Assembly (NCBI GenBank): GCA_964627245.1
Contig: CAZVGS010000001.1
Location: 89,256 to 153,255 of the forward strand
DNA: 64,000 bases
Direction of reading: 5' to 3'
Origin: an uncultured Gammaproteobacteria bacterium
GTDB lineage: Bacteria > Patescibacteriota > Microgenomatia > Levybacterales > GWA1-39-11
Positions within the stretch are counted from its first letter, which is position 1; each line of letters opens with the position of its first letter. Under the pieces are notes generated by a model. It saw only the letters and a list, made by a program, of their open reading frames with translations. It did no database searches and had not been told where the DNA came from. Shown here piece after piece: positions 133 to 17,689 of the stretch. Made by a program: the position numbers and the translations under genes.

Positions 133-226
133 GCAATTGCTGCAAATGAATATTTGTAAAACTCAATCTCTTTCAGTGGTAGTTTGCTATAATAAGTTCG
201 AACATCGTTCTGTAGCTGACCCCAAT

Positions 227-967
227 TTAGTTCTGATCAGTGAATAGAAAAACTTTCCCTGGAATTTCCCTCAATATCCTAGCAGGTGTTGTAGCCAGAT
301 CTCCTTCTTCAGAAAGCAAACGCAAAACTGCTTCCTTTTTATTATTTCCCGCAACATAACATACCGCCACATCAATTTTTCTTATTAAATTCATTGTTGT
401 TGTTGCCCGCAATGGATACTGGTTTTTATCTCCAGCATCATACCCCACAACCAATTTTTCAGTGTTCCCACCATCAAACATCTCATAGAATTTTTGCGGA
501 TTTTCAGGATACGGCATCATGCCCGATACATGACCGTCTGCACCTACACCTACTGTTGCAACAATTTTCCCATCAGGATTTTCTTTTAACCAATCTAAAA
601 GTGCTTGGTTAAAGCGCTTTGCCAGATTTTCTTGACTCTCACCCTGCAAAACTCTAGTGTCTATCATGCCCGCCCCATTTTCGCGTGCTTTTCTAAAAAA
701 ATCCGTCTGGTCAATTTGCCCCATATTATTCTCTTCAGGATTTGTGCTGTACCTTTCATCGAAGGGACATATAGTAACAGCAGGAGAAATAAGGTCTTCA
801 TTTATTCCCGCTAAAATTTCCAACGACGATCCCCCCGATAGCAGAAGGAGAATTTTTTTTTGCTCCTCACCAGCCTCCTCAAGCAAGGCATTCATGCAAG
901 CTTTTGCCCCGTCTAATGGCCCCACTTTTTCTTTAATTTCGGGATTTTCTGTAGTTACTATAATCAT
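227..967 (-). CDS. 6-phosphogluconolactonase / glucosamine-6-phosphate deaminase family protein
   Basis: 246 aa; LSGGSS motif and overall length are typical of the Pgl/NagB sugar-phosphate isomerase fold; last gene of a minus-strand operon. Confidence 0.5.
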   Translation of the reverse strand: MIIVTTENPEIKEKVGPLDGAKACMNALLEEAGEEQKKILLLLSGGSSLEILAGINEDLISPAVTICPFDERYSTNPEENNMGQIDQTDFFRKARENGAGMIDTRVLQGESQENLAKRFNQALLDWLKENPDGKIVATVGVGADGHVSGMMPYPENPQKFYEMFDGGNTEKLVVGYDAGDKNQYPLRATTTMNLIRKIDVAVCYVAGNNKKEAVLRLLSEEGDLATTPARILREIPGKVFLFTDQN

Positions 968-970
968 GAC

Positions 971-2449
971 CTAAAAGCTGAACTTAATAAAAGAACAATT
1001 GTCCGTAGTAACACCCTGGGCAGGCGTAAAGGTCTTTAGCTGAAGCTGTTTTCTTTGAGCTTCTGTCAGAGTAGGAGTTGGCGTCGGAGCGTCTACATTA
1101 TTCTGCACATTCTGCTGACCAAAGCCGAATAACCCGGCAAAGAAATTAACAATTCTTCCCCATAGACTAACCGGCTTGACATCTTCCGCTGCAAGCACAA
1201 CCTTGGTTGGATAAGCGTTAAATATTGCGGCGGTTTTTCTGGAACAGTCGGGCTTTGCTTGTATTCTGTACGTTTGGGAAGTATCAAGATCTAAAGGTAA
1301 ATCCAAATTCCAAATAGCCTGATAACGCGCCAATGTCGGCGTGTCCTCAATAACGGTTGTTGGAACAGTTTCTTTCTTTACTTGGTCAACCACCGTCCCG
1401 CTGCCTTTATAAAAGACGAAGGTAAATGTCGGAATCTTTGCATAATTTGTATTCTCGCCTTCTACTTTCCCGTATGCAGTAACTTTTGTAGTTGTTCCTA
1501 GTGCTATCGAACCAAAATCAAGGCTGTCGCATTTGCACATCGACTCATCAAAAGGCAATGGTGTTGGTGTTGCTGTTGGAGTCGGGGTTGGACTCGATGT
1601 AGGTGTTGGTGTTGCTGTTGCAGTCGGAACCGGCGTTGAAGTTGGGCTTGGAGTCGAAGTAGGCGTGGGAGCATCAGTTGGTGTCGGAGTTGGTGTGGGG
1701 GTTGGCGACTTTGGGACAGTGGGTGTCGCCGATGGCTTTGTGGTTGGAGTCGACTGTGGAGGATTTGTCGGACAAACTCCGCAGTCCTGAGGACACGTGC
1801 TGCATGTTTCACCGCCGCTGCAAACATTATTTGGACATGTTTGAGAAGGTGTTGTTGGCGTAGGAATATTAGGCGGAGTTGTGGGAGTGGGTGTGTTGGG
1901 CTTGCACTGTGTAAAACAATAACCTGCTTGAGCGTTATTTGAATTATACTTTGATGAAGAACACCAATCGTCTCCGGCAGGATTCCAATTCGTAGCTCCA
2001 TTTGGACACGCTTTTGAAAAATTTCCATTTGAATCGGCGCAATAACCGGAACCTCCGGGACAAGGGGTTGGAGGAGCGGGACAAGTCAATTTTAACTGCA
2101 TGCTGATTGCATTACCGTTAGTACCGCATGTCGGACCGCTTAGCGTTGAGGTGCATCCGGGAGGAAATTGTGAAGTGGGAATGTTGACACATCCGGATGC
2201 ATAAGGCGGACAACTGCACCGGGTCAAATTTATTGTACCCCCGGGCCCGGCAGAACCTGACTCCCCTATGCAGTTTGCACCGTTGTCTCCGGGACAGCTT
2301 GCCGTAATCACCCCTCCGGGCCAATTCGTAGCCGAAACAGTAACACTCATTTTTAAGCAATTTGCCAAATTTTGAGCATTGGCGCTTTCGACTCGCAAAA
2401 AACCAAACAAGAATGCAGAAATTATAACTAGAAAAATTTTTAATTTCAT
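971..2449 (-). CDS. secreted Cys-rich surface protein with a long Pro/Thr-rich linker
   Basis: N-terminal signal peptide (MKLKIFLVIISAFLFGFLRVESANA); many Cys; PTPTPTPT low-complexity linker; start overlaps the upstream gene's stop (ATGA). Confidence 0.6.
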   Translation of the reverse strand: MKLKIFLVIISAFLFGFLRVESANAQNLANCLKMSVTVSATNWPGGVITASCPGDNGANCIGESGSAGPGGTINLTRCSCPPYASGCVNIPTSQFPPGCTSTLSGPTCGTNGNAISMQLKLTCPAPPTPCPGGSGYCADSNGNFSKACPNGATNWNPAGDDWCSSSKYNSNNAQAGYCFTQCKPNTPTPTTPPNIPTPTTPSQTCPNNVCSGGETCSTCPQDCGVCPTNPPQSTPTTKPSATPTVPKSPTPTPTPTPTDAPTPTSTPSPTSTPVPTATATPTPTSSPTPTPTATPTPLPFDESMCKCDSLDFGSIALGTTTKVTAYGKVEGENTNYAKIPTFTFVFYKGSGTVVDQVKKETVPTTVIEDTPTLARYQAIWNLDLPLDLDTSQTYRIQAKPDCSRKTAAIFNAYPTKVVLAAEDVKPVSLWGRIVNFFAGLFGFGQQNVQNNVDAPTPTPTLTEAQRKQLQLKTFTPAQGVTTDNCSFIKFSF

Positions 2450-4137: not shown

Positions 4138-4809
4138 ATGGAACTCCCATACAGTGAATATGTCTGGTTCTCTCCGCGATTCGCGATGAATTACCTCACA
4201 GACTTGATGAGAAAATACACTCCTGATGTTGTACTGAGAAGCCCCAAATACAAGAAAGAAAAAGAAGCATGGATTATGGGCGTAGCACTCTTCGGGGTTA
4301 TTAAAATCACCCGTGTTAGGTGGTGGTTACAAGTGCCAACTGATGACCCACCAGACATGAAGGCTATGATGTTAACGCCAGACCATGATAAAAACCTCAA
4401 TATCATGAATTATCGTGAAGTTGAAATAATGCAAATCACCAAACATACTAACGGAACTATTGTTGAGGAGATTTTGAGAAAGTTAAAGGGTAATTCATAC
4501 CCCAAGGAATGGGCACTAGTCGTCTACTTAAACCGTGCAATGTTTATAGAAGATATGCGAAAAATATCAAACGAACTCGTTGAGGCAAAACCGAAAATCG
4601 CAGATATATGGGTAGTTGCCAGCACTACACCAAATGCGAATAAATACATACTATTTTCTCTTTTCCCAGAGGTTCAGACAGTTACATACGATATTGATGA
4701 GGAGATGAGAAATTTAGAAATTGGAGACTCTATTGACCTCATGCCATACCATAAAGGTACGACAATGACATTAATCCGCAATGTTAAACGCACAAAATTT
4801 ATTCCCTGA
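4138..4809 (+). CDS. hypothetical protein (223 aa), leftmost gene of the putative element
   Basis: Intact ORF with GC content like the element block; no recognisable motif. Confidence 0.45.
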   Translation: MELPYSEYVWFSPRFAMNYLTDLMRKYTPDVVLRSPKYKKEKEAWIMGVALFGVIKITRVRWWLQVPTDDPPDMKAMMLTPDHDKNLNIMNYREVEIMQITKHTNGTIVEEILRKLKGNSYPKEWALVVYLNRAMFIEDMRKISNELVEAKPKIADIWVVASTTPNANKYILFSLFPEVQTVTYDIDEEMRNLEIGDSIDLMPYHKGTTMTLIRNVKRTKFIP

Positions 4810-4839
4810 CCTCTGAATTAGCTACTGCAAACCTCAAAA

Positions 4840-4862
4840 AAAACTTGACTTCCTGCCCGTTA
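4840..4862 (+). promoter_or_regulatory. promoter/operator-like motif AAAACTTGACTTCCTGCCCGTTA (copy 1 of 2)
   Basis: Contains a TTGACT -35-like hexamer; 22 of 23 nt identical to 10587-10609; both copies lie upstream of plus-strand gene blocks. Confidence 0.35.
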
Positions 4863-4881
4863 TCCGATTACGGTTATCAGT

Positions 4882-5037
4882 ATGAAGTCAACACGTGCGA
4901 CAATCATACTCTCTTCAGACGTTCATGAAGCCTTAAGACGAATGGCGTTTCAAAGACGGCTAAGCATCTCAAAACTGGTCCGACTTTCCCTCATTGACTT
5001 CCTTTTGAAGCATGGGGAGAAAAGACCGGAGGAATAG
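4882..5037 (+). CDS. ribbon-helix-helix (CopG/Arc-like) DNA-binding protein, 51 aa
   Basis: MKSTRATIILSSDVHEALRRMAFQRRLSISKLVRLSLIDFLLKHGEKRPEE; N-terminal beta strand then two helices is the RHH pattern; below the ORF-track size cutoff. Confidence 0.45.
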   Translation: MKSTRATIILSSDVHEALRRMAFQRRLSISKLVRLSLIDFLLKHGEKRPEE

Positions 5038-5209
5038 TATGACAGGGGTGAGATTGTCCATCCTTGCCCCGCATACTAATGATTAGCTATGAGCGCAAAA
5101 GATTTAACAATGATTATAGAAATACTGGTACAGATGGATTACATCAGGATTAAGCTCGATGAAAATCAGCGGGTACTTGAGATACTGGCCAAGAGACTGA
5201 AACGATAAT

Positions 5210-5509
5210 ATGAATTTAGAATTTAACAAAACATGCGAATTATGCAGGGATGAGTTTACCCTTACCCACAGGCCACACAGAGGCGGAACAATAGTCTCAC
5301 GGTTGTGTCCTAATTGTGAATCAATCAAACCTGAGATTGAAAAGGTAATGTACGGCAAATCCTACTCAAGCGCAACGGATGAGGATAAAGCCAGAATCTT
5401 CGAACGCGCACGGGAAAACAGAACAGTCAGACGCGGACCGTTCTTCAATCCCAAAGACAACGGAACGGGCGGAAAAGTTCAGTCAGAATACGAAAGGAGA
5501 AAAAGGTAA
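5210..5509 (+). CDS. zinc-ribbon protein (CxxC...CxxC), 99 aa
   Basis: CELCRDEF...CPNCES; the motif C-E-x-C-x-[DE]-x-F-T-[LI]-T is shared with ORF 16194-16553. Confidence 0.5.
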   Translation: MNLEFNKTCELCRDEFTLTHRPHRGGTIVSRLCPNCESIKPEIEKVMYGKSYSSATDEDKARIFERARENRTVRRGPFFNPKDNGTGGKVQSEYERRKR

Positions 5510-5712
5510 TGCCGACAAGAAATAATACAGAAGGAAAGGTATTCGGTGATATTGAGGGACAGACAAACCACCCTGAGGGACTGGACATGACAAAACAGTT
5601 AAAAATGAGGGAAGGACAGCGCAGCGGATTGGTCAGAATGGGAGTACCGAAAAGCATCGTCAGAGCAAGTATCAATCAGGCTCAGTTTAAGCCTACAAGA
5701 AAGGGTAAATAA
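5509..5712 (+). CDS. hypothetical small protein, 67 aa
   Basis: Start overlaps the upstream stop (translational coupling). Confidence 0.4.
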   Translation: MPTRNNTEGKVFGDIEGQTNHPEGLDMTKQLKMREGQRSGLVRMGVPKSIVRASINQAQFKPTRKGK

Positions 5713-5795
5713 TGATCACTTACTGTTCGGAATGCGGGTACAGACTTTTCCGGGGTAAATACCGATACTACTGTATTAACAAAGAATGCTTATGA
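5712..5795 (+). CDS. tiny zinc-ribbon ORF, 27 aa (MITYCSECGYRLFRGKYRYYCINKECL)
   Basis: Four Cys arranged as CxxC...CxxxC; overlaps neighbours at both ends (ATGA-type coupling); below the ORF-track size cutoff. Confidence 0.25.
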   Translation: MITYCSECGYRLFRGKYRYYCINKECL

Positions 5796-5968
5796 TAGAT
5801 GAATTACTTGATGATATGGCAATTGAGATTGAACGGCTAATGGTAAGCGATGCGGTTAAAGCCCGCCTGAGATTACAGCTTGCAGAGCTTGCGGATAATA
5901 CCCAGGAGCTACGGCTGAAAGCACTATTTGACTGTATTCTGTTCGAGGCCAAAAAACTAAACACATGA
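5786..5968 (+). CDS. hypothetical small protein, 60 aa
   Basis: Coupled chain of small ORFs. Confidence 0.4.
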   Translation: MLMIDELLDDMAIEIERLMVSDAVKARLRLQLAELADNTQELRLKALFDCILFEAKKLNT

Positions 5969-6264
5969 AACTATACGAAAAAGCAATAAAACAACTGGAG
6001 CGGGATAAACCTAAGGTAACTATTGAGGATAACACAGCCAAGAGAATAGAAATCCTGAACAAACTGTTACAGGCAGAATACGGATTCATTGAGCAGAACA
6101 AAGATGAAGTAACGAAAGAGCTGAAAGGACGGTTCAAAGAAACCCTGATAAATGAAGTACTTGAAGAGATTAAGAATCACAGCAATACCGGTAAAACACC
6201 GTACTATGTAGGACTACAGATCGCCAGCGATACGGTACAAAAACGAAAGGGAAAACAGCAATAA
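5965..6264 (+). CDS. hypothetical protein, 99 aa (Lys/Glu-rich, helical)
   Basis: ATGA overlap with the upstream ORF. Confidence 0.45.
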   Translation: MKLYEKAIKQLERDKPKVTIEDNTAKRIEILNKLLQAEYGFIEQNKDEVTKELKGRFKETLINEVLEEIKNHSNTGKTPYYVGLQIASDTVQKRKGKQQ

Positions 6265-6265
6265 T

Positions 6266-6613
6266 ATGAAACAAAATAAGACCATTTCCCCCTTAGAAGG
6301 AAATAATGAGGAAGCCGAACAGGCTACAAAAGAGATACGGTCAGGCAAGTCAGCTAGTGGAAAGAAATCTTCCCCCCCCGTTCCCCGTCCCCAACAAACA
6401 CCGTTTAAGATAAACAAACTCTCGGATATCCGCAAAGCAAGTAAGGTACTCATGACTGATTTAATCAACAAGGAGGGCAGGTTCACGGTTGCAGAAAGCA
6501 GAGTATTCAAGGACATGGCAGAGCTGTACTTTAAGGCGGAGGAGAACATTACAACCAAGAGACTAATGAATAAGCTGAAGAAAGAAAACGACACGGACAG
6601 AAAGGGGCGGTAG
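6266..6613 (+). CDS. hypothetical protein, 115 aa (basic)
   Basis: Starts immediately after the stop of the previous ORF. Confidence 0.45.
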   Translation: MKQNKTISPLEGNNEEAEQATKEIRSGKSASGKKSSPPVPRPQQTPFKINKLSDIRKASKVLMTDLINKEGRFTVAESRVFKDMAELYFKAEENITTKRLMNKLKKENDTDRKGR

Positions 6614-6760
6614 CGCAGGGGTATGGGTACTGAATAAACTGTACGGTATTTCAATGATGCTACACCACCCCCCACCTATACCTACACCCCGCGCGGTGGG
6701 ACACGGGTAAAGGGAGTGACATATAGAGGAAGTACTTAACGGTGTACAGAAGGTAACCCA

Positions 6761-7006
6761 TTGAAGCGAACTCTTATAAATTTTTTGGGAGATTTTTGTC
6801 ATAATAACTGTATGAATGATACCAACTTTCTAATTTCTCTGGCTATTGGTTTTGTTATATTTTTACTTTTTTCATTTAGTGGCCCAAAAACGCATCGCGA
6901 TCCATTCTATGGTGATATTGATAACATTTCGCATAGTATTGCTGTTGGATTGATCTGTATGGGGGCAACGTACAGTATTTTGCAAATTATTAGTAGTATG
7001 TTTTGA
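6761..7006 (+). CDS. small membrane protein (2 TM), start uncertain
   Basis: Hydrophobic helices LISLAIGFVIFLLFSF and IAVGLICMGATYSIL; lies in an AT-rich segment. Confidence 0.3.
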   Translation: MKRTLINFLGDFCHNNCMNDTNFLISLAIGFVIFLLFSFSGPKTHRDPFYGDIDNISHSIAVGLICMGATYSILQIISSMF

Positions 7007-7042
7007 TGTCCCAATTTGACAAAGATTGATTAGCACGATACG

Positions 7043-7399
7043 GTGTATAAGCTTGGTAAAGGATACTATGGCAGTATTCTAATCTACAAAGGAGCATCTC
7101 TCAGGAGGTGCTTTTTTGTGTCTATTTGGTATAATGAATTAATGGATTATAAAACTGCCAGTGAGCTACTTAGAGAACTTTCTCTACTTTGGATATGGGA
7201 AGCCGGAAACTATAATAATAAAATTCCATCCAACTTGCTTACCCGGGATCTTTGTTATTATGACCAGGCGTGCGACTATTTACGACGATTTCCTAAAACA
7301 GGTGATCTTGAACGTGTGGCCCTCGCTCAAATGCAGATGAATTACATTGACGATATTGAGGGGAATAATGAAATGGAAAAATTATTTTCCATCCTCTAA
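7043..7399 (+). CDS. hypothetical protein (118 aa as called; possibly starts at the internal Met, MDYKTASELL)
   Basis: ORF in an AT-rich segment. Confidence 0.3.
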   Translation: MYKLGKGYYGSILIYKGASLRRCFFVSIWYNELMDYKTASELLRELSLLWIWEAGNYNNKIPSNLLTRDLCYYDQACDYLRRFPKTGDLERVALAQMQMNYIDDIEGNNEMEKLFSIL

Positions 7400-7528
7400 C
7401 CTTTTAATTACATCAGCTCTTCTCTTCCGTACTTCATCAAGGAGTTTCTTACGTCTTTCACGGACTTCATTGTACATGGGTTTTACTACTACTCGTGGCT
7501 TTCTAAACTTCCCGTATTCAGTCATACG

Positions 7529-7822
7529 TTAGTACTCTCCTACGCGTTCAGCCCATTGAGGAGGTGTTCTTTCGTCCTCTTCGCTATGTAATTGAGTTTC
7601 AAATGATATTTTCGAGGCGTGTTCTATAGTGGAATCTTTACCTACTTCGCCACCTATTCCGAGTACGGTAATTCCTACTTTTCCGCCTCCCTTGTCACTC
7701 TTGGTAACTGCAATATCAAATTTAACGGAGCTTGAAACATAATTACCGCCAGTGTGAGCGTCCTTTATCTGCCTGAGGCTTTCTTGTATGAAGTCTTTTA
7801 GTTCGTTATTTTCGTCTGCCAT
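7529..7822 (-). CDS. small Gly-rich beta-type domain protein, 97 aa; reminiscent of Trypco2-like conflict-system domains (tentative)
   Basis: KFDIAVTKSDKGGGKVGITVLGIGGEVGKDSTIEH pattern; last gene of the minus-strand cargo operon. Confidence 0.4.
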   Translation of the reverse strand: MADENNELKDFIQESLRQIKDAHTGGNYVSSSVKFDIAVTKSDKGGGKVGITVLGIGGEVGKDSTIEHASKISFETQLHSEEDERTPPQWAERVGEY

Positions 7823-7823
7823 A

Positions 7824-8291
7824 TTATACGGTTACCTTCTTTTTCTTGAACCTTCTGTATCCTAAATATCCCAATCCCCCAAGTAGTGCCATTGCCACAA
7901 CCCCACCACCTCCACTATCTTCACTCGCTCCCTGAACGGCTATGGTTGGTGTAGGCTCTTTGGGCGAGGGTGTATTCGTGGGTTCATCCGTAGGTTCAGC
8001 GGTAGGAGTAGGAGTATTGGTAACAGCACGGGTTGGTATTCTCGAGGGTGCGGTTGTGTTTATCGGTGCAAATTGTTTTACGGGTGCGGTTGTTGCAACG
8101 GGTGCACTTTCAACCCTTTTTACGCTTCCGTCTGGGTTATGGTGGTGATATTCTCCAGAGCCTAAACCCCATTCTTCGCAATTAGTACGGCATCTATGAC
8201 CACCGCTCCCGTCGGTCCCTCCAGGATGGGCTTCTATAGGGGAAACAGATATATAGAAGAGCAGGGATAAGATAAGTAAAGTTTGATACAT
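7824..8291 (-). CDS. small secreted Cys/His-rich protein with PT-rich linker and C-terminal TM anchor
   Basis: Signal peptide MYQTLLILSLLFYISVSPIEA; GGHRCRTNCEEWGLGSGEYHHHNPDG; PT linker; C-terminal VVAMALLGGLGYLGYRRFKKKK. Confidence 0.55.
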   Translation of the reverse strand: MYQTLLILSLLFYISVSPIEAHPGGTDGSGGHRCRTNCEEWGLGSGEYHHHNPDGSVKRVESAPVATTAPVKQFAPINTTAPSRIPTRAVTNTPTPTAEPTDEPTNTPSPKEPTPTIAVQGASEDSGGGGVVAMALLGGLGYLGYRRFKKKKVTV

Positions 8292-8310
8292 TAACCAGTA
8301 TTATACTCCT

Positions 8311-10227
8311 TTAATCGTGCCAAATGTCATTACCTCTCGCATCCATACCTAACCACTGCTGAGATTTTTCTAATTCCTCACGCCAGTACCACCCGCCGGG
8401 AACTTTTTCTTCTGTCTTTTTCTTAATAGCTGGTTTCCGTGTTGGGGTCGGAGACGGAGCTTCAGTTGTTATCGGGCTAGGGGTAACTGATGGTATTGCG
8501 TTTACCGTTGCTACCGGAGAAAGAATTTCGAGAGCACTCACTTCTTTTATCTTTGTTGCCGAATCAAATAAATAGTAAGTAGTAAATCCAGATACAGTTG
8601 CAAATACAGAGATGAAAATAATGATTTGACTTACAGTGAGATAATTAGCTCTAATGTGTGAAAATGCATAATTAATCCGTTTTGATAGGGGTGGGATTTC
8701 ACTTAACCGTCTTTTGGTATTTCTCATCTGTACAACCAAAATAAACGTTATTATGAAATTCCAAAAAATCCAGAATTGAATAGAAAAATAATCAATATCA
8801 AATAAATGAATATCCCCTGTCCTTAGCCCAATCAGAATTAGAATAGTATAGAAAGTGAAATATATGGTTACAAACCGTGTCGTTTGTGAGAAAGCATGAG
8901 AGACAGATTTGTGTTTCGCGTTAGTTGAAACCCATCCGACAGATTTTTTGAACAATGCGGTTTTTACTGCGTGGGAATACGCATAAGTTCGAGCCATGAG
9001 AATTCCAAAATACCCGAATCGAAATTTAGCGACTGGGAATAACCACAGGTAAACAATTGCAAAAATTAAGTGAGGGTAAAAGAGCAAACTCTTACCGAGA
9101 GGAATATATTCATTGTATAAGAACAGTGTCCAAAAGAGATGGAAAGAGAAGAGGATCATCAAAGGGTGATGTAAATAGAACATAAACCCGGTAATAAAGC
9201 AGAATTTGGTTTTCCACGATGTCTTACCTTTCCAGAAAAATTTTGAAAGCATTAATCGCAAACTACCCATACACCATCTATGTTGTTGGTGGAAAAAGGC
9301 GTATTGATTATCCGGGCATAATCCAATAGATAGAAGTATCGGTACAAATAGAACCCTTAAACCTACTCTTGAAATAGCGTACCCAGTATGAGCATCTTCA
9401 CTGTATTCAATCTGATAGGGTCCGCCGATTGCCTCGATTGCACTTCTCCGATACAATGCACACGAACCACAGCATATAGCCCCCCCGAATCGACTTCTCG
9501 TCACTTGAATAAATCGGTAAAATGGCTCTTCGGCAAATGCTGCGTTATATGCGAATTTTGATTTTTTATATGCATTATCTGACAAATCAAAGTATTGAGG
9601 CGTTTGAACAATTCCGACAGTTGGATCATCCATATACGGGAGCGTTTCTTTTATAAAATCGGGATGGGGTGCGAAATCAGCATCAAAGATTGCGATAAAA
9701 TGACCATTAGACCTCTCAAAAGTATGTTTCAAATTTCCAGCCTTTTTCATATGTCCCTTATTCGGCCGTTCCATATAAACGAATCCAAAGTGTTGAGCCA
9801 ATTCTTTATGCGCCTCGAAATTTTCCTTCGAATCATCCAATACGTATACGGTTTTATTTTTATAGTTAATGTTTGATACGTGTTCCCAGGTATTTCTGAG
9901 TACGTCAACTTCTTCACCACAAATAGGCAAGAAAATATCAACGGGGGGTTCTTTGTCATATGATTTTACAAGTGCAAAGTGTTTCAGCAAGTCAAATTGA
10001 CGGTAAAACAAGTTAAGGCCAAAGCTGGCAAGGTGATAAATAGAGAGTAGTATAAAAATTGGAATGACAAAAAATGAATAAAACGGGTCTATCCCTATGA
10101 CGTTCCAGTACCCAAGCATAATCAAGATCCATGAGAAAATCCCAAATCCATACAGTAATCTAACTTTCCAGGTGGGAGTTTTTTCAATATACAGGTACTT
10201 ATTAATTGTCGAGGGGTTGGGGAGCAT
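8311..10227 (-). CDS. processive family-2 glycosyltransferase (cellulose/chitin/hyaluronan-synthase-like), multi-TM
   Basis: 638 aa; N-terminal TM helices, DD and DxD-type motifs (LDDSKEN, IFDADF), QQHRW (QxxRW) motif, C-terminal TM bundle, then a PT-rich tail. Confidence 0.8.
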   Translation of the reverse strand: MLPNPSTINKYLYIEKTPTWKVRLLYGFGIFSWILIMLGYWNVIGIDPFYSFFVIPIFILLSIYHLASFGLNLFYRQFDLLKHFALVKSYDKEPPVDIFLPICGEEVDVLRNTWEHVSNINYKNKTVYVLDDSKENFEAHKELAQHFGFVYMERPNKGHMKKAGNLKHTFERSNGHFIAIFDADFAPHPDFIKETLPYMDDPTVGIVQTPQYFDLSDNAYKKSKFAYNAAFAEEPFYRFIQVTRSRFGGAICCGSCALYRRSAIEAIGGPYQIEYSEDAHTGYAISRVGLRVLFVPILLSIGLCPDNQYAFFHQQHRWCMGSLRLMLSKFFWKGKTSWKTKFCFITGFMFYLHHPLMILFSFHLFWTLFLYNEYIPLGKSLLFYPHLIFAIVYLWLFPVAKFRFGYFGILMARTYAYSHAVKTALFKKSVGWVSTNAKHKSVSHAFSQTTRFVTIYFTFYTILILIGLRTGDIHLFDIDYFSIQFWIFWNFIITFILVVQMRNTKRRLSEIPPLSKRINYAFSHIRANYLTVSQIIIFISVFATVSGFTTYYLFDSATKIKEVSALEILSPVATVNAIPSVTPSPITTEAPSPTPTRKPAIKKKTEEKVPGGWYWREELEKSQQWLGMDARGNDIWHD

Positions 10228-10232
10228 ACGAA

Positions 10233-10532
10233 CTAGTTACCACCATTTCGTACACGGGACACAAAATCTCTAATTCTTTGTTGAAAGTCATTGTTATATT
10301 CTTTGAATTCTGGATTACGAACAGCTTTACAGCTTGGATAAGAAATTTGTCGATTAAATGGAAGTTCGCGTGTTACAGTCTGACAAACAATAGTTACAGG
10401 TGTATGAGGATTATCATAAATTGGCGGTGTTACTCCACCTCCACCATAAGCAGAAGCTGTTGGAACGTTAAATAAGAATACGGAGAGAATAAATGTGAGT
10501 ATAAATAACTTTTTCATCCTTAAAAGCATCAT
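10233..10532 (-). CDS. small secreted protein, 99 aa (possibly starting at the internal MKKLF)
   Basis: Signal peptide ...FILTFILSVFLFNVPTASA; first gene of the minus-strand cargo operon. Confidence 0.5.
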   Translation of the reverse strand: MMLLRMKKLFILTFILSVFLFNVPTASAYGGGGVTPPIYDNPHTPVTIVCQTVTRELPFNRQISYPSCKAVRNPEFKEYNNDFQQRIRDFVSRVRNGGN

Positions 10533-10544
10533 AACAGATGCATC

Positions 10545-10572
10545 TTATAATATCAATACCCATTTCTTACAA
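10545..10572 (-). promoter_or_regulatory. candidate promoter for the minus-strand cargo operon (TTGTAA-N16-TTATAA)
   Basis: Reverse complement reads TTGTAAgaaatgggtattgataTTATAA just upstream of the ATG at 10532; AT-rich divergent control region. Confidence 0.3.
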
Positions 10573-10586
10573 TATTTTAATTTTTG

Positions 10587-10609
10587 AAAACTTGACTTCC
10601 TGTCCGTTA
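10587..10609 (+). promoter_or_regulatory. promoter/operator-like motif AAAACTTGACTTCCTGTCCGTTA (copy 2 of 2)
   Basis: Near-identical to 4840-4862; precedes the second plus-strand gene block. Confidence 0.35.
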
Positions 10610-10684
10610 GTACGATAGGGTTTCATCATAAGCTAAACAGCCAAGCACTAGCACTTAGCGACTAATCGTATTTTCGAGAGGTCG

Positions 10685-10730
10685 CTTTTTTTGTGGCTGG
10701 AATGTTGAAAAGCGGGGGTTCCTCCTTCAA
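10685..10730 (+). promoter_or_regulatory. bipartite conserved element CTTTTTTTGTGGCTGGAATG ... GTTCCTCCTTCAA (copy 1; copy 2 at 17196-17247)
   Basis: Both halves recur in the same order and spacing upstream of the 17336 ORF; preceded by an AGCGAC/GTCGCT inverted repeat. Confidence 0.3.
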
Positions 10731-10789
10731 CAAGGGGTCCATAATGCCCCCGCCTTTGAGCCTTTCAGTTAAATGATACAAGGTTAAAT

Positions 10790-11062
10790 ATGAAGAAAGT
10801 AAGCAGAAACAATTTATACAGAGAGATAGACAAATTATTCCTTTGGTTAATTCAGTTACCCGATACTGATGCCGATGAGGATAAGTCTTTGCGTGAAATT
10901 CAGAAACATCTTGTCAGGTTATCAAATCTGAAAAGTGAGGAATACACTCAGGAAGCTCCTGAACAGCCGGAACAACCGCAACAGCAGGAACCGCAAAAGC
11001 CGTTAACCGATATGCAACGAAAAATTATGAGCGGGGAAATCTCGATAGGAGGACAGGAATAA
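10790..11062 (+). CDS. hypothetical protein, 90 aa (acidic, PEQPEQPQQQ repeat)
   Basis: First ORF of the second plus-strand block; the next gene starts 2 nt after its stop. Confidence 0.45.
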   Translation: MKKVSRNNLYREIDKLFLWLIQLPDTDADEDKSLREIQKHLVRLSNLKSEEYTQEAPEQPEQPQQQEPQKPLTDMQRKIMSGEISIGGQE

Positions 11063-11063
11063 A

Positions 11064-12101
11064 ATGGCTTGGGGCGAACAGGGACAGAAAATTACATGGA
11101 CACCGAACGTAGTTTCAGACGATAAGAAACAACACGGCGGATGGTATGACAATCCTTCAACGGGATATAACCAACGGTGGTACTCAGGCGGTGCAACCAG
11201 TGAAAACGGTAACTCTTCCTCTAGTGGCTTCTCAATTCCTCAACCTGATATGGAAGCAATCAATCGGGAGTATCAGCCTATTTATGAGAATTATGCCCGT
11301 GATGAGCAGTTCTTAAAAGAATCCCAGGCAAGTGAGCAGGAAATGCTTAATGACAATTTTACTCTTGCCGATACCCGACTTGATAGGAATAAAACGGAGC
11401 GCGAGTTACACAACAAGGAACAGGAAACTACACTTAATAATCAATACCGCTCAGCGTACGAGGAAGTAGTACGCGCACAGAACGCATTAACACAGCAGGG
11501 AAATGTACGATTCGGAGGCACATCTTCAGCGGGTCGGGCTATGGGAGAAATCGCACAAAGTGAATTCTTCCGACAGTCAGGAAAAATACAGAATACCCAT
11601 CTTGAGAATATAGGCAGAATTCAGTCCGATTGGAGAAAATATCTTTCTTGGCATGCGGACGAAGAGCAAAGACTGGTCCAGGAGAAAAGACACGAAACCA
11701 CAAAACTTCAAAACACGTACAAACAGATGTATGTTCAGATTGCAAATAACCGTAACATCACAAAATCAGAACAGGCACGGGCACAGCGCAACGCTCAGGA
11801 AACATACCAGGCACGTAAGGCAGACCTTGAGAACTCTATCAAACTCAGACAGATGGCAATGGATGAGTACGCCCAAAAACTCAGAATGGAACTTGATGCG
11901 CAAATTGAGTTAGCGGGTAAAACAGCCTATTCGGTATCGGATAACACGTTTGCAAGTGATACTCAGTCAGATGTTGACGGTGTAAGTTATGTTCCTTCCG
12001 AGAACGGCAGTCTTATGAATATGAATACCAGTTATGTAAATCCGTTCGCACGCGCACGATACAGCGATGATGAATTTGAGGATAATCCTTATTTCGCTTA
12101 A
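11064..12101 (+). CDS. hypothetical Gln/Asn-rich coiled-coil-like protein, 345 aa
   Basis: Long ORF with coding-like composition and no recognisable catalytic motif. Confidence 0.5.
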   Translation: MAWGEQGQKITWTPNVVSDDKKQHGGWYDNPSTGYNQRWYSGGATSENGNSSSSGFSIPQPDMEAINREYQPIYENYARDEQFLKESQASEQEMLNDNFTLADTRLDRNKTERELHNKEQETTLNNQYRSAYEEVVRAQNALTQQGNVRFGGTSSAGRAMGEIAQSEFFRQSGKIQNTHLENIGRIQSDWRKYLSWHADEEQRLVQEKRHETTKLQNTYKQMYVQIANNRNITKSEQARAQRNAQETYQARKADLENSIKLRQMAMDEYAQKLRMELDAQIELAGKTAYSVSDNTFASDTQSDVDGVSYVPSENGSLMNMNTSYVNPFARARYSDDEFEDNPYFA

Positions 12102-12106
12102 TAACT

Positions 12107-15100
12107 ATGGAATTAAAATCACTGCTCAGAGACGTTTCACGCCGTTATAACGAATATAACCGTAAACAGAAAAAACCACGCATACAGCCGAGTCTTATTG
12201 AAGATGTCGGGAACCGATTCCGCTCATTCGTAAAAGAACAGTCTCAGGAAGGCCAACCGCTCCACAAAATAACCCGCACCATTCAGGAATTACCGTTAGT
12301 TACACAACGCGAAGTAGATGAGGTCGGGACCCGCTTTCGCTCTTTCGTGGATGAAAGACAAAAAAATGTTGATGATGTGGGTAAACGATTCGGGGAATTC
12401 AAAGTAAAGGCTTCTCAGTTTTCAAAGGATTATGACCCGTTCAACTTTGATGAAAAAGCCCCGATAAATCAGCTTCCCGTTCTCGGCGATATCCGCAGAA
12501 CATTACAGCCGTATACAAATCCTTATAAATTAGGTCCTATGGAACTGATGCGCAGAAATACGGAACTCATGCAAAAAGAGAGTAAAGGAATTGCATTGAC
12601 CGATGAGGAAAAGGAATTTCAGAAGTATTACATGACCGAACAGGCTTCTATGGTTATGCCGATGGGTACGGTCGGTAAAGTGGCAAAACCCGCATTAACC
12701 GCATTGCAGAAAGAAGCCGTAAAGAAATTACCTAAAATACTCTATGAATTTGATGCTAAGACCGCAAACAAGGTAATTGATGAAGCAAAAGGAGCCTCTA
12801 AAGAATGGGTTGATGAATTCAAATCATGGGTAAATACCAGAGCATCCGCACAGCTTCAGGGACTGAATCAGCGGATGAAATTCAAGGATATGGATTCTGA
12901 GGGAATTGCAGGTATTTTTAAGTTCCAGGCAGGAGACAAGACGGGACGGTTTGCCGATGTGAAGAAATTTTTTGATTCCCGCTATTCAGAACTTCAGAAA
13001 GCAGGAGTTGAATTCAGATATAAACAGGAGTATCTACCGCAACTATGGCTTAATTCAAAAGAAGAGGTTGAGGAACGGCTCGGACGAACTCTTACTTCCC
13101 GTCCTTCCTTCTCTCTTCGATCAGTAATTGAGAATTATCAGAAAGGAATAGCTAACGGACTAAAACCGCGCTTTCAGACATTATCGGAACTTATCGGATG
13201 GTATGAGGCAAAAACGGCCAAAGTTATAGCGGATCAGAATTTTTACAACTACATGAAGAAGGCAAAGTATATTCTTCCTGAGGATACGGCTCCTGCATGG
13301 TGGAAAACGATAGATTCCGAGAAGTTTCCGAAGTTCACGGTTAAAGTAGGTTCGGAGGTTAAGAATCTGAACTATAAAGCTGAGGGAAGAATTGCGGATG
13401 CTATTAACAATTATCTTAATGACCCTGAAGGAGCATTACCAGCTTTTGCTGACTTTGCCACGAAGGTTAAGAATCTGGGATTATCGGCAGGCGTACCCCA
13501 TACTTCAATTAACTTTCACGGCTATAACATCTTCGTCCGTTCGGTCCTGGCAAGTAATAACCCCGTATCTTCTATTTTCAGAACAGGCCAATGGATGCTT
13601 AAACCCAAAATTGCGGAACGGTTTGTTATGAATAACCTTGAGGATGCGCAGTATTTTGTTAAAAACGGCATGACCATGAGTACCGAGGATTACGGACTGT
13701 TCGAGGCGGTTGAGAAGGTTAAAAAAAGCGGTGTAATTAATAAGACATTAGATAAATATGAGGAATGGTTCGGGGACCCTCTGTTTAAGAAATCCCTTCC
13801 CGCAATCAAAATTCAGTATACCCGCGCATTGTTTGATGATTTACTCAAAACATTGCCTGAAGAGGAAGCGGTAAAGATAGCCGTAAAAAGCGCAAATGAT
13901 GTATTCGGGGGAATTAATTTGAATGAACTGATGCGCAACAAACAAACACAAAATGTACTCCGTTCCGTTCTGCTCGCGCCAGACTGGGCTGAGTCTACAA
14001 TCAGAATGGGTAAAGGAATTGTTAAAGGAGTTGCCAACCCGTTAAGCCCCGAGTACAAAGCATACCGTACTTTTGCCAAAAACATGGTATTCGGGTATAT
14101 CACGGCCAACGTTGTGAATAAAGCTCTGTCAGGTCACTGGATGTTTGAAAATGAAGGTAACAATAAATTCAATATTGATACCGGTACATATACGGGAGAC
14201 GGTAAGAAACGGTACTTCAGAATCTGGGGTACGGCCGTTGATTTTGCCAGACTTCCTGTTGATATCGTTAACGGTCTCTCAAAAGGCGATCCGTCAGCAT
14301 TTGTCAGAACCTTCACTAACCGCTTATCCATGCCTGTAGGTTCAGCAGGACATTTACTATTCAATAAAGATTATCTCGGACGGCCCGTATACGGAAAAGA
14401 CCAATGGGGAAATGAAATCGACCCTATACAGTCAGCAGGAGGCATAACAAATGAAGTATTACGCGGTGTCGGAACTCCTACTCAGGTAATGGCGGGTATT
14501 GATTTACTTACAGGGCGTTCAAATCCCGAACAGGCTCTTGCTCAGTCACTTGAACTTCCGATGCGATATCAGGGAGGAGCAAGCTCGGACACACAGAAAA
14601 GAAGAAATGCAGCGTTTCAGTCTCTCGGCTTTGAAGGCGAAGCATTAGCCCGCGAAATGGAGAGAACAAAGGGTATGAGATATTCGGGAAGTCAGGGAGA
14701 AGAAAAGTCACTGCTTGACCATATCGGAGAAAAGTTCATGAGCGTATTCGGTAAGAAAGAACCTAACAGACCTCAGCCGAATGACCCGCTTACAAAGGCT
14801 TTTCTTGCGGATATCGAAAAGGATGAGAATGCTACCCGTGTAAGAGAAGTATTCAAATTAGGTTTAAGCAAGGAACAGACAGAACAGTTACTTGAAAAGG
14901 AAGGATTAGGTACGTATGAAGAAGCTGAATTGATAATTATGAAAGCTCTCGGTGTTGAGAACGGAACTCGTGGAAATTACATTCAGGAGATTACAAAGGG
15001 AATGGATGATGAAAGTAAAGAGGCCACTCTTTCCTATCTGGCCGAGAACGAAATTCTGACTACCTCAGTTATATCCCAATGGGTTGATGACGGGGAAATA

Positions 15101-15391
15101 ACAGACGAGGAAGCCGATTATCTGAAGGACCTGATTAAAAAAAGTAAAGGAACGTACAAAGGTCCGAAGGCAAAAGGCGGTAAGAAAGCGGGCGCAAAGA
15201 AAGTAACGGCAGGAAGTATCCCGACAATTAAGATTCCTACTTTTGCGGGCGGTACGGTTAAGAGTGTCAGCAAGGCATATTACAAACCGATACCAAAGAT
15301 TACCTATGAAAGACCTACGCCTACTTCAAAACAAAAAGTATCAGCTCCGAAGCCTGAGACTAATTTTAAATCATACGGAGGGAACAACTAA
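12107..15391 (+). CDS. large hypothetical protein, 1094 aa, with N-terminal repeats [DE][DE]VG-x-RF-x-[SE]F and a Lys-rich C-terminus
   Basis: Repeats DVGNRFRSFV / DEVGTRFRSFV / DDVGKRFGEF; C-terminal KAKGGKKAGAKK; could be an ejection/pilot, tape-measure-like or DNA-associated protein. Confidence 0.55.
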   Translation: MELKSLLRDVSRRYNEYNRKQKKPRIQPSLIEDVGNRFRSFVKEQSQEGQPLHKITRTIQELPLVTQREVDEVGTRFRSFVDERQKNVDDVGKRFGEFKVKASQFSKDYDPFNFDEKAPINQLPVLGDIRRTLQPYTNPYKLGPMELMRRNTELMQKESKGIALTDEEKEFQKYYMTEQASMVMPMGTVGKVAKPALTALQKEAVKKLPKILYEFDAKTANKVIDEAKGASKEWVDEFKSWVNTRASAQLQGLNQRMKFKDMDSEGIAGIFKFQAGDKTGRFADVKKFFDSRYSELQKAGVEFRYKQEYLPQLWLNSKEEVEERLGRTLTSRPSFSLRSVIENYQKGIANGLKPRFQTLSELIGWYEAKTAKVIADQNFYNYMKKAKYILPEDTAPAWWKTIDSEKFPKFTVKVGSEVKNLNYKAEGRIADAINNYLNDPEGALPAFADFATKVKNLGLSAGVPHTSINFHGYNIFVRSVLASNNPVSSIFRTGQWMLKPKIAERFVMNNLEDAQYFVKNGMTMSTEDYGLFEAVEKVKKSGVINKTLDKYEEWFGDPLFKKSLPAIKIQYTRALFDDLLKTLPEEEAVKIAVKSANDVFGGINLNELMRNKQTQNVLRSVLLAPDWAESTIRMGKGIVKGVANPLSPEYKAYRTFAKNMVFGYITANVVNKALSGHWMFENEGNNKFNIDTGTYTGDGKKRYFRIWGTAVDFARLPVDIVNGLSKGDPSAFVRTFTNRLSMPVGSAGHLLFNKDYLGRPVYGKDQWGNEIDPIQSAGGITNEVLRGVGTPTQVMAGIDLLTGRSNPEQALAQSLELPMRYQGGASSDTQKRRNAAFQSLGFEGEALAREMERTKGMRYSGSQGEEKSLLDHIGEKFMSVFGKKEPNRPQPNDPLTKAFLADIEKDENATRVREVFKLGLSKEQTEQLLEKEGLGTYEEAELIIMKALGVENGTRGNYIQEITKGMDDESKEATLSYLAENEILTTSVISQWVDDGEITDEEADYLKDLIKKSKGTYKGPKAKGGKKAGAKKVTAGSIPTIKIPTFAGGTVKSVSKAYYKPIPKITYERPTPTSKQKVSAPKPETNFKSYGGNN

Positions 15392-15393
15392 TT

Positions 15394-15579
15394 ATGAATA
15401 AAAAGTGTCTTACATGCGGGACGGAATTACAGAAACGAAAACATGAAAGCCGGGCAAGATTTGAAAAAAAGCAGTTCTGTACGGCCGAACATGCCAGGAC
15501 ACATATGAAGGAAACAGGGCGTGGCTGGTGGAATCCGGAATTTGATAGAGGAAAACTCAGAGCAAAGGGGGTGAATTAA
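15394..15579 (+). CDS. zinc-ribbon protein, 61 aa (CLTCGTE...CTAEH)
   Basis: CxxC plus C/H pair; strong SD upstream. Confidence 0.45.
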   Translation: MNKKCLTCGTELQKRKHESRARFEKKQFCTAEHARTHMKETGRGWWNPEFDRGKLRAKGVN

Positions 15580-15581
15580 AT

Positions 15582-15776
15582 ATGAACAAAGACCAATTAA
15601 GAGATGAAATGCAACAGGTAGCTTATGACACTATTCGGGGCGTTTCAGGACAACAGGTAAACGAGATTGATTACAAGAACGCGCTTGTATCAAAAACTCA
15701 GGAAGTCGTTGACGGAGCATATCAGCTCGGTTATAACGCGGGCTTTGAGGCGGGCAAAAACGCGCCACAAGGTTAA
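15582..15776 (+). CDS. hypothetical protein, 64 aa
   Basis: SD AAGGGGGTG upstream; coupled to the preceding ORF. Confidence 0.45.
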   Translation: MNKDQLRDEMQQVAYDTIRGVSGQQVNEIDYKNALVSKTQEVVDGAYQLGYNAGFEAGKNAPQG

Positions 15777-15808
15777 GAAATATTAAAAATGAAAGGAGGT
15801 GTAAAAAT

Positions 15809-16201
15809 ATGATTCGCAGAGATAAAACAAATTACGATCCTAACAAGGATAAATACAACTGGACGAACGACATGTACCGACAGGATGAGCTTTCTAACAG
15901 GGATTTAGAAGAACAGAAAGCGATAATCAATAACTGGCAGGCTATGAGTGAAAGTAAAAATGAAGCTGAAAAAGCCGAATGGGAACTGAACAGAAGAATT
16001 GCAGCGGTTACCGAAACGGATAATGCAGACATCAGACAGAAAGAGGCAATTAAGAGATACAAAATAGCCCAAAAATATGACGAGATAATCCGTAGCAAAA
16101 TGACAAGAGGCCAGACAGAGGAAGAATTTGAAGAAGAACGTCATGAATACGGAGCATTGCATCGCAGGGCTTTAAAAGAGGCTATGCGGTCAATTGAATA
16201 A
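15809..16201 (+). CDS. hypothetical charged helical protein, 130 aa
   Basis: SD AGGAGGTG, 8 nt upstream of the ATG. Confidence 0.5.
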   Translation: MIRRDKTNYDPNKDKYNWTNDMYRQDELSNRDLEEQKAIINNWQAMSESKNEAEKAEWELNRRIAAVTETDNADIRQKEAIKRYKIAQKYDEIIRSKMTRGQTEEEFEEERHEYGALHRRALKEAMRSIE

Positions 16202-16553
16202 TATGAGGGACGAGAAATGTATTGAATGCAGTGAGCAATTCACGATTACGGAAAGTGAACAATCATTTTATGTAAAGATGGGGTTCTTTCTTCCGAAAAG
16301 ATGCGCTGATTGCAGAAGAAAAAGAAAAGCTCAATTCGGGCAGGAAAGGAGGTTTAACTTAATGAATAATTCAAAACTTACAACATCAAGAATTACAAAG
16401 GCCACGAAGCAGGAAGCACCTAAAAATGCTATAGATTTTGCTTCTGACCAGAGAAAGGGAGTAACCAACTCTCAGGCTCCTGAAATTCGTGCGAATAACG
16501 GAACCATCTCTAGCAACGGCGGACGGTTCGGCGGATTCCTTAAGAACCGCTAA
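16194..16553 (+). CDS. zinc-ribbon protein, 119 aa; paralogue-like to ORF 5210-5509
   Basis: CIECSEQFTITESEQ ... CADCRRKRK; shares the C-x-E-C-x-[DE]-x-F-T-[LI]-T motif. Confidence 0.5.
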   Translation: MNNMRDEKCIECSEQFTITESEQSFYVKMGFFLPKRCADCRRKRKAQFGQERRFNLMNNSKLTTSRITKATKQEAPKNAIDFASDQRKGVTNSQAPEIRANNGTISSNGGRFGGFLKNR

Positions 16554-17043
16554 CGGTAATTGGAGGGCAGGTTGTTGTTCGTGAGTTCAAACGGAAACGA
16601 GCAGTTTCCGGGTAATGTGTTCCTCATGAGCAACGCTCTGTCCTTCAGGACGGAATGGCTTACAGCCTGAGATTTCATAGCTCTCAGTCAACACCAACGG
16701 GCGGAGCGGGTAAAGAATGTGCAGGAAAATCAGTCTCACAATAATAACTTTACCTGCCCGCTACGAAGTGCATACTCTACGGCTCTGTAATGCCTCAAAA
16801 ACGAGAGGAAATGCCTGAATCATACACATATACCATTAACGGGGTAAGACACGAAAAACGAAACTATACGGCCTTCTGGACCATAGATGAATAATAAATA
16901 TATTATGTATGTACAGGCACATAATTAGTTAAGATAACAGTAATTACTTAACGTACTATAAGCTTGACAAGTCACTTCCAGCATGATACAAATAATATGT
17001 AGCAATAAAAAAGCTATCGGGTAATAAGTGTTTGAGCAAATGA

Positions 17044-17112
17044 CCCTTTTCGGGTGCTGTTGTTCTAACTGCTTCAAACACGGCACAGCACTACCCGAAA
17101 GGGGTTTTTTAT
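17044..17112 (+). terminator. rho-independent terminator (long imperfect hairpin plus T-run)
   Basis: CCCTTTTCGGGTGCTGT ... ACAGCACTACCCGAAAGGGG followed by TTTTTTAT. Confidence 0.5.
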
Positions 17113-17195
17113 TGGCTTACTACTAGCCCTATTAGTAGTGCACATACGGTAGAGGCAATCAGATGAATCGCGTAAAAGCGGAAAATCGGTTGTCT

Positions 17196-17247
17196 CTTTT
17201 TTTGTGGCTTGAATGAGGGGAATCGTCAGCGCGTTCCTCTCCTTCAA
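17196..17247 (+). promoter_or_regulatory. bipartite conserved element CTTTTTTTGTGGCTTGAATG ... GTTCCTCTCCTTCAA (copy 2)
   Basis: See 10685-10730; lies about 90 nt upstream of ORF 17336. Confidence 0.3.
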
Positions 17248-17335
17248 TTCGCAAGAATTGAGGTAAGTAGTTAAGTCCTTTGTCTGGCTGGCATTTGCTT
17301 CTTTGTCAGTCAGTCAAAGCATTTAAGGAAAGGGG

Positions 17336-17608
17336 GTGAAAATTATGGACAAAAGTAACGAAAACAACCTATGCAATCATTCATTCGGCGAAATAACTGA
17401 ATCAACTGACGGAGTATTTTTTATTGACTGTGAACTTTGCGAAAAGAGAGTAAGAATGACTGATGAACAGTCTGAAGAATTCATGAAATTTAGAGAAAGT
17501 ATGTGTCAGAAATGCAAATCGAATACGGCCGATTGCGGTGATTTATGTAAACGTTGTGACGGTATTTACAAAATTTTAGAGGCTACAAGAACGGAAGAAT
17601 CATGGTAA
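17336..17608 (+). CDS. Cys-rich (multi-CxxC) zinc-binding small protein, 90 aa
   Basis: CNHSF...CELCEKR...CQKCKS...CGDLCKRCDG; strong SD AAGGAAAGGGGGTG. Confidence 0.5.
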   Translation: MKIMDKSNENNLCNHSFGEITESTDGVFFIDCELCEKRVRMTDEQSEEFMKFRESMCQKCKSNTADCGDLCKRCDGIYKILEATRTEESW

Positions 17609-17689
17609 GAGCTGAGAGTTTGTGAGTTTTGCCTGGAGTGGTCCCGGATCACTTCAGACAAAGAACATAAGAGAAGGAGGTGTATTAAT

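Follow-up and report, generated by a model that had tools for sequence, protein, structure and literature searches.

The use of one operator in two promoters, so that a single repressor silences both, is familiar from lambda (OL and OR) and from P22 (Arc and Mnt at Pant). Arc is a ribbon-helix-helix (RHH) protein, and its operator lies between the -35 and -10 elements. The late promoter PR' of lambdoid phages works with the terminator tR' and with antitermination by Q. Among plasmid regulators, CopG has for its operator one pseudo-symmetric 13-bp element, at a single promoter. CopG, which is encoded by plasmid pMV158, represses its own promoter, Pcr, by binding over the promoter core (PMC2724298), and omega, the RHH ParB protein of pSM19035, controls several promoters, its own included, via short non-palindromic direct or inverted repeats (PMC9499535).

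Here, we describe a 23-nt repeat that occurs twice in a 64-kb stretch of DNA (the window), each time ahead of a plus-strand gene block. Most likely, it is a promoter that was duplicated and whose two copies have a control box in common. The proposed arrangement, in which one promoter and operator, used twice, would place two operons of a mobile element under joint control, is a textbook one, and the promoter wiring itself is ordinary; the element family in which it is found is previously undescribed, and the element itself is new and poorly understood.

RESULTS

A unique 23-nt repeat within one integrated element

The two copies of the repeat, AAAACTTGACTTCCTGCCCGTTA (copy 1) and AAAACTTGACTTCCTGTCCGTTA (copy 2), have the consensus AAAACTTGACTTCCTG[C/T]CCGTTA and are identical at 22 of 23 positions, the sole mismatch being at 4856/10603 (Table 1). 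These were the only matches on either strand of the window when as many as three mismatches were allowed, and none of 100 dinucleotide-preserving shuffles yielded a match; the pair is also the top internal repeat of the element described below (self-BLAST, E = 9e-4 within 16.4 kb). Beyond the 23 nt, the copies continue with 6 unlike bases and then with TA[C/G]GGTT, where 6 of 7 positions agree in register (4869-4875 and 10616-10622); we estimate the chance of such a match at about 0.001. Since the shuffles were negative and the putative -10 elements lie in register, a chance repeat is excluded. The repeat is real and non-random, and the original prediction of a 23-nt motif present twice, with 22 of 23 positions in common, was borne out to the exact coordinates. 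Both copies are intergenic and on the plus strand; the ATG at 4882 is 19 nt past the end of copy 1 and the ATG at 10790 is 180 nt past the end of copy 2.

The limits of the element that holds both copies were derived from synteny with locus L023, where only 25 nt separate a 223-aa host gene from the tRNA genes that come next, along with a GIY-YIG gene. The window has the element between its 223-aa gene (4138-4809) and its GIY-YIG homologue (20377-20625). Because the flanking host genes adjoin in L023, the intervening DNA is an insertion of ~15.4 kb, whose left junction falls somewhere within 4810-4839 and whose right end abuts tRNA-Lys(ctt) (20207-20279, minus strand). Homologues of the 223-aa gene occur in ordinary chromosomal settings. 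That gene was also considered as a route to relatives of the early region and was set aside: it is a host gene, which fixed the element boundary and yielded no further instance of copy 1. A large serine recombinase gene (18557-20233) occupies the right end of the element, and this integrase ORF runs, with its last 27 nt (20207-20233), into the 3' part of the oppositely oriented tRNA-Lys(ctt). The attachment junctions were not located exactly, because there is no terminal repeat, as is expected for a serine integrase. Both copies, the early ORFs, the glycosyltransferase cargo and the 90/345/1094-aa block all fall within the insertion limits and thus belong to one element; synteny therefore independently upheld the earlier proposal that the two blocks belong together despite the minus-strand cargo between them.

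Table 1. Features of the integrated element and of the two promoter regions, in window coordinates
Feature	Position	Strand	Remarks
Integrated mobile element, ~15.4 kb	4810-20206	+	Holds both copies; limits from synteny with L023
Copy 1	4840-4862	+	A-tract, -35 TTGACT (4845-4850), first 12 nt of spacer
Putative -10 of copy 1, TACGGT	4869-4874	+	18 nt past -35; 7 nt ahead of ATG 4882
CopG-like RHH gene, 51 aa	4882-5037	+	Candidate autorepressor
Inverted exact box TTGACTTC	4884-4891	-	Overlaps RHH codons 1-4
Third box copy, TTGACTTCCT	4994-5003	+	10 nt identical to motif; inside RHH gene
P3, third promoter of the class	7016-7044	+	TTGACA, 17-nt spacer, TACGGT
Intrinsic terminator after P3	7085-7120	+	~40 nt downstream of P3; predicted RNA ~70 nt
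Copy 2	10587-10609	+	-35 TTGACT (10592-10597)
Putative -10 of copy 2, TAGGGT	10616-10621	+	Preceded by TTAGTACGA; predicted start near 10628
Intrinsic terminator T1, promoter-proximal	10657-10693	+	7-bp G+C-rich stem and run of 7 T; kept in L005
Leader hairpin 2, 74 nt	10696-10769	+	Fold z-score -3.2; all pairs kept in L005
Core operon, 90/345/1094/61/64/130/119 aa	10790-16553	+	Downstream of copy 2

Both copies can be read as promoters

Each copy is readable as a full sigma-70-type promoter with a weak, G+C-rich -10 element. Both consist of an A-tract, a TTGACT -35 element, an 18-nt spacer and a -10 element of TACGGT (copy 1) or TAGGGT (copy 2). The -35 element agrees with TTGACA at five of six positions and the -10 elements agree with TATAAT at three of six; these three (T-12, A-11 and T-7) are the most conserved ones. 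A promoter consensus scan listed neither site, and the pattern TTGACT-N17-19-TA[CG]GGT was matched in the window by copies 1 and 2 alone. At the position of copy 2, the closest relative, L005 (assembly GCA_020049755.1), has AACTTGACA, which provides a TTGACA -35 element, followed by a 17-nt spacer and TAGCGT. The motif had been called promoter-like, with a TTGACT hexamer noted in it, and this view is supported by the TAnnnT -10 element in register and by the retention of the -35 and -10 elements in L005.

A third promoter of the same class, P3, lies between the two copies and has TTAGyACGATAsGGT in common with the 3' half of copy 2 (13 of 15 positions). When five promoters (copy 1, copy 2, P3 and those of L005 and L007) were aligned, TTGAC, the TTA at -21 and TA...T were invariant. 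The composite pattern TTGACn-N8-9-TTAG-N5-TAnnnT occurred five times in the family loci and not at all in the host part of the window, which amounts to 48.6 kb (shuffle mean, 0.16); copy 1 has TTAT where the composite has TTAG. Five of the 18 occurrences of TA[CG]GGT are intergenic, and intergenic DNA makes up 15% of the element, a modest enrichment that was not counted as evidence alone.

Other promoters of the element have canonical extended -10 elements (TGGTATAAT at 7127-7135 and TGATACAAAT at 16984-16993), and the poor -10 elements of the motif copies, set beside these, suggest that there are two promoter classes. The TGGTATAAT site lies directly past the P3 terminator, 6 nt from the ATG (7142) of a predicted leaderless 85-aa gene. 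The second site forms part of a conserved canonical promoter at 16964 (TTGACA, a 17-nt spacer containing TG, and TACAAA), which is followed by two tandem strong terminators (~17042-17112 and 17151-17204) and by more hairpins; within 16964-17340, a region of 350 nt is strongly structured (fold z-score, -5.95), and the 90-aa, HTH_36 and integrase genes lie downstream of it.

Copy 1 and a putative RHH gene at the left end of the element

Copy 1 is at most 30 nt from the left junction of the element. It had been described as preceding the RHH gene and the early small ORFs, and its position was as described; what had been missed is that this is the extreme left end of the element and that the mRNA is predicted to be leaderless. 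The RHH gene has no Shine-Dalgarno sequence, whereas strong ones are found at many other genes of the element, and its ATG lies so close to the putative -10 element that a transcript starting 6 to 8 nt past the latter would be leaderless. The RHH mRNA is therefore probably leaderless. The same layout is seen elsewhere, with TGGTATAAT placed 6 nt before the ATG at 7142, TATAAT 5 nt before the host-gene ATG at 4138 and, in L007, TATAGT 6 nt upstream of the first early gene, so that leaderless expression looks normal in this system.

The RHH ORF matched three Pfam RHH families at E values of 0.02 to 0.05, all under the family cut-offs. Its best natural PDB match was to the CopG structures 2cpg and 1b01 (E about 0.23 to 0.25), with full-length alignment. 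A single-sequence AlphaFold model gave an extended N-terminus and one long helix and was uninformative on the fold, and no homologues were detectable by search. An imperfect 17-nt palindrome, CCGTTATC-c-GATTACGG (4857-4873; 7 of 8 positions per arm), is present at copy 1 only; it covers the end of the motif and the putative -10 element and may be a copy-1-specific operator.

The element also encodes two small proteins with CxxC...CxxC treble-clef zinc fingers, at 5210-5509 (99 aa) and at 16194-16553, the latter of which matches zf_Tbcl (E = 2e-9). Both are possible nucleic-acid binders, and similar proteins are encoded in L006 and L007 as well as in L023, a host-type locus.

Copy 2 is followed by a conserved, structured leader

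Copy 2 stands back-to-back with a promoter-like site of the minus-strand cargo operon (~10528-10575). The 90/345/1094-aa block does lie downstream of copy 2, as had been stated; between the two, however, is a conserved leader with an intrinsic terminator. This leader of ~160 nt (10626-10785) is 81% identical to its counterpart in L005 (2472-2628), the terminator T1 and hairpin 2 included. All 41 predicted pairs are kept in both sequences, and 3 of them have changed on both sides, a degree of conservation that is supportive, not conclusive, given that two sequences were compared. A 22-nt stretch of the leader, AGCTaAACAGCCAAGCACTAGC, is nearly identical in L005. A promoter-like site followed by an intrinsic terminator also precedes the core genes in L005, L006, L007 and L008.

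In Rfam searches of the window, only tRNAs scored above threshold; 10560-10800 gave chance-level matches alone, and neither promoter region had a match. A covariance model of the leader, built from the two sequences, gave weak hits at the syntenic place in L007 (E = 0.04) and in L016 and L017. Considered as an antisense seed, the conserved leader segment has no complementary site within the window. A weak extended -10-like site, TGATACAAG, lies 7 nt ahead of the ATG at 10790 and might drive the core operon without copy 2.

The second-best internal repeat of the element (10685-10704 and 17196-17215), CTTTTTTTGTGGCT[G/T]GAATG, takes in the tail of the terminator and the beginning of the hairpin that follows. 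Its second copy precedes the replication/integration block, and a close variant is syntenic in L005 (8541-8559). The 216 nt of noncoding DNA after the last core gene (16557-16772) are 73% identical to L005 8094-8315 and have no Rfam match; they may represent an origin, a site of recombination or a structured RNA.

Immediately ahead of the core promoter is a cargo slot, which in the window holds a GT2 glycosyltransferase operon (7529-10532, minus strand) and in L005 a restriction-modification system of DNA methylase, R.HinP1I and Vsr (219-2440, plus strand). The L005 cargo extends to 2440, and the -35 element there begins at 2437.

A candidate operator common to both copies

The 8-mer box TTGACTTC, which consists of the -35 element and two further bases, occurs exactly at 4845(+), 4884-4891(-), 4994(+) and 10592(+). 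Three of these sites fall within 157 nt at the RHH gene, and the fourth is at copy 2; the box is found once in the host DNA. The 10-mer TTGACTTCCT is present at 4845, 4994 and 10592. In a simulation that took the motif as given, the probability that any sub-8-mer would have at least two extra copies within 160 nt was 0.0011. Beyond the box, the copies have the spacer sequence TCCTGYCCGTTA in common. RNA polymerase does not require the identity that extends over 12 nt of the spacer. The spacer segment TCCTGTCCG (TCCTGyCCG), which is common to copies 1 and 2, is not conserved in L005. The failure of L005 to keep the spacer, together with the recurrence of the box around the RHH gene, suggests a shared operator. 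It is plausible that one regulator acts at both copies and that the RHH protein, as a reasonable candidate, is the binder: a cluster of boxes at the gene for a small DNA-binding protein, with a further box at a distant promoter, looks like an autoregulated repressor with a second target.

The three boxes at the RHH gene are 39 and 110 bp apart and non-contiguous, which counts against an operator. Two of them lie in coding sequence, where codon choice could partly explain them, and neither dyad nor tandem symmetry, which RHH operators usually show, is clear in the 23-mer. The weak assignment of the protein to the RHH fold is a further point against. Because no relative was found that has an early as well as a core promoter and is close enough for comparison, selection on the spacer is inseparable from recent duplication.

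The motif is not widespread, and the 1094-aa core protein has few homologues

A wider search had been proposed along with the motif. Across 185,579 species genomes, AACTTGACTTCCTGNCCGTTA gave three hits (L001, L002 and L003), which were taken as chance since all are in unrelated phyla; the L003 hit is inside a 475-aa ORF, and the other two, judged from sequence alone, are apparently coding too. There were no hits in IMG/VR and none in the 48.6-kb host part of the window. The motif is thus not widespread, and a generic host promoter is ruled out by these scans. The leader 18-mer GGTCCATAATGCCCCCGC, tried as a way to close relatives, matched IMG/VR twice, both times by chance in coding DNA rich in G+C, and was abandoned. 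The window also has a 12- to 18-nt periodic DNA repeat (1560-1757), which is unrelated to the motif and stems from the long Pro/Thr-rich linker of a host secreted protein (971-2449, minus strand).

The 1094-aa protein (12107-15391) has few homologues, most of them on contigs of 14.3 to 16.5 kb, and the one in L005 is 58% identical. Only the genes for the 345-aa and 1094-aa proteins are common across the family; some of its members carry serine recombinases, primase-helicases, ribosomal protein S21 (L008, 4301-4498) and a weak CHAP-domain hit (L009, 11845-12687) that is a possible lysin. The S21 homologue and the faint CHAP domain hint that the family leads a virus-like life. In L004 to L007, none of the five largest repeat families listed for each locus was comparable to the repeated promoter, and L007 is the sole locus with two moderately similar promoters.

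No match to the 1094-aa protein was found in Pfam, in PHROGs, in the PDB (by sequence or fold) or in the GenBank phage and PLSDB plasmid collections. Its AlphaFold model is of low to moderate confidence (mean pLDDT of 54, with values of about 70 to 85 over much of residues 230 to 670). The sole informative matches were by fold, to phage proteins in BFVD that are labelled 'large polyvalent protein associated domain' (E = 1.5e-12; TM score, 0.35 to 0.45); the large polyvalent protein family has been described (PMC5512222). The protein has VGxRFxxF repeats in its N-terminal part and a lysine-rich C-terminus.

DISCUSSION

Based on these data, we consider the two copies to be paralogous promoters of the sigma-70 type within a single integrated element of ~15.4 kb, with an operator in common through which they would be controlled together; we put the probability of this reading at about one-half. 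Under this model, host RNA polymerase would read both copies. Transcription from copy 1 would begin at the first base of the ATG at 4882 or 1 to 2 nt ahead of it, and the resulting leaderless mRNA would carry the gene for the CopG-like RHH protein along with about eight small ORFs. Transcription from copy 2 would begin at the predicted start given in Table 1 and would first produce the structured leader; T1 would have to be read through for expression of the 90/345/1094-aa core, and most transcripts would stop there unless read-through were promoted. The identity between the copies extends beyond what RNA polymerase needs, to TTGACTTCCT and the rest of the spacer, and a shared operator is its best explanation. 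One DNA-binding protein encoded by the element would then set the activity of both promoters, the RHH protein being the most likely candidate: this protein, or another early protein, sitting on the box and spacer, would hold the left and core operons at a common low level.

It is also possible, and we entertain it as a tentative alternative, that both copies are promoters and that their extra identity records history only, namely, duplication or recombination at module junctions, with no dedicated regulator. Both copies lie exactly at module boundaries, copy 1 near the left end and copy 2 flush with the cargo slot; copy 2 is a mosaic, its 5' half being like copy 1 and its 3' half like P3 and the promoters of L005 and L007; and the whole 36-nt promoter can be aligned with two small indels, as common descent predicts. 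Simple duplication, however, does not predict the two additional TTGACTTC boxes around the RHH gene (p about 0.001), and an identity that breaks and then resumes in register around a 6-nt patch looks more like positional constraint than like one recent contiguous copy. We prefer the shared operator.

The restriction of the TTGACn-N8-9-TTAG-N5-TAnnnT pattern to the element clade, its absence from host DNA and the contrast between the poor -10 elements of the copies and the canonical extended ones at TGGTATAAT and TGATACAAAT would suit a special promoter class under an element-encoded activator or alternative sigma factor, that is, a positive middle or late control that recognizes the TTAG at -21 and the G+C-rich -10 element. 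We regard this as unlikely, given that copy 1 carries TTAT instead of TTAG, that no sigma factor or known activator domain was recognized among the element proteins and that the near-consensus -35 element is atypical of activator-dependent promoters. The suggestion of a dedicated sigma factor for both blocks found no support, none being encoded in the element according to Pfam and PHROGs. A promoter of the ECF or alternative sigma type (AAC...CGT) was likewise rejected: AAAAC and CGTTA are 13 nt apart, about 3 nt short of the approximately 16 to 17 nt needed, and no sigma factor was found among the element proteins. That the motif is no promoter at all, and instead a recombination, packaging or replication site (for example, for integrase attachment) or a chance repeat, is highly improbable. 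The closeness of copy 1 to the left junction and the existence of two copies in all would agree with such a site, but copy 2 is internal, the right end (20150-20206) has neither a direct nor an inverted copy, each copy faces a gene block on its own strand, and promoter-like conservation is seen at the position of copy 2 in relatives. As an attachment site for the serine integrase in particular, the motif was discarded, since it has no right-end partner and no dyad typical of such sites.

The shared-promoter model has a practical value, in that it marks two probable transcription starts and a candidate repressor-operator pair in an element family with no annotated relatives in phage, plasmid or PDB sequence collections. 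If the pairing of the RHH protein with the box is correct, it would supply, for an uncultivated lineage, both a determinant of immunity and a regulated promoter of compact size. A broader proposal is that the motif is part of the control circuit of an undescribed, possibly virus- or satellite-like integrative family of ~15 kb in uncultivated bacteria, defined by the 345-aa gene and by a gene of about 1100 aa related to polyvalent-protein domains. Each major operon would be gated by a terminator close to its promoter, an element-encoded factor would help to read the clade-specific promoter class (TTGAC, TTAG at -21 and a G+C-rich -10 element), and a new form of antitermination or activation would act alongside the RHH protein as a box-specific immunity repressor; we hold this to be doubtful, although not negligible. 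The terminator-gated leaders would be a lead to new read-through control.

Membership of this locus in the CopG, omega, temperate-phage or lambdoid-late families is not established. Like CopG of pMV158 (45 aa), the RHH protein of the element (51 aa) is very small and is encoded by the first gene of its operon. Unlike the CopG operator, the candidate boxes are non-palindromic and dispersed 8- to 10-mers, and the box is present at a distant second promoter too. In being short non-palindromic repeats, direct or inverted, that overlap promoters, these candidate boxes are reminiscent of the omega sites. The latter, however, are arrays of 7 to 10 contiguous heptads (WATCACW), whereas the element has one box per promoter and two isolated ones in the RHH gene, and it is without a ParA partner, unlike the omega system. 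As in the temperate phages, one candidate operator would be embedded in two promoters that face different gene blocks of an integrated element; the element lacks operator symmetry of the lambda or Arc type, as well as recognizable capsid, terminase and repressor genes.

The comparison with the lambdoid late promoter concerns copy 2. Unlike the lambdoid late module, copy 2 has no Q homologue, as no Q-family antiterminator was found in the scanned ORFs of the element (Pfam and PHROGs); its leader has no Rfam match, and control by read-through is predicted from the layout. Like PR', copy 2 is followed within about 40 to 70 nt by an intrinsic terminator and then by a long operon for probable virion or delivered proteins, and it has conserved DNA in the spacer and in the initially transcribed region, with a -10-like TAAGCT at about +2 to +7. 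The promoter-proximal terminator, T1, is a trait of Q-type modules, and its analogues are found in L006, L007 and L008.
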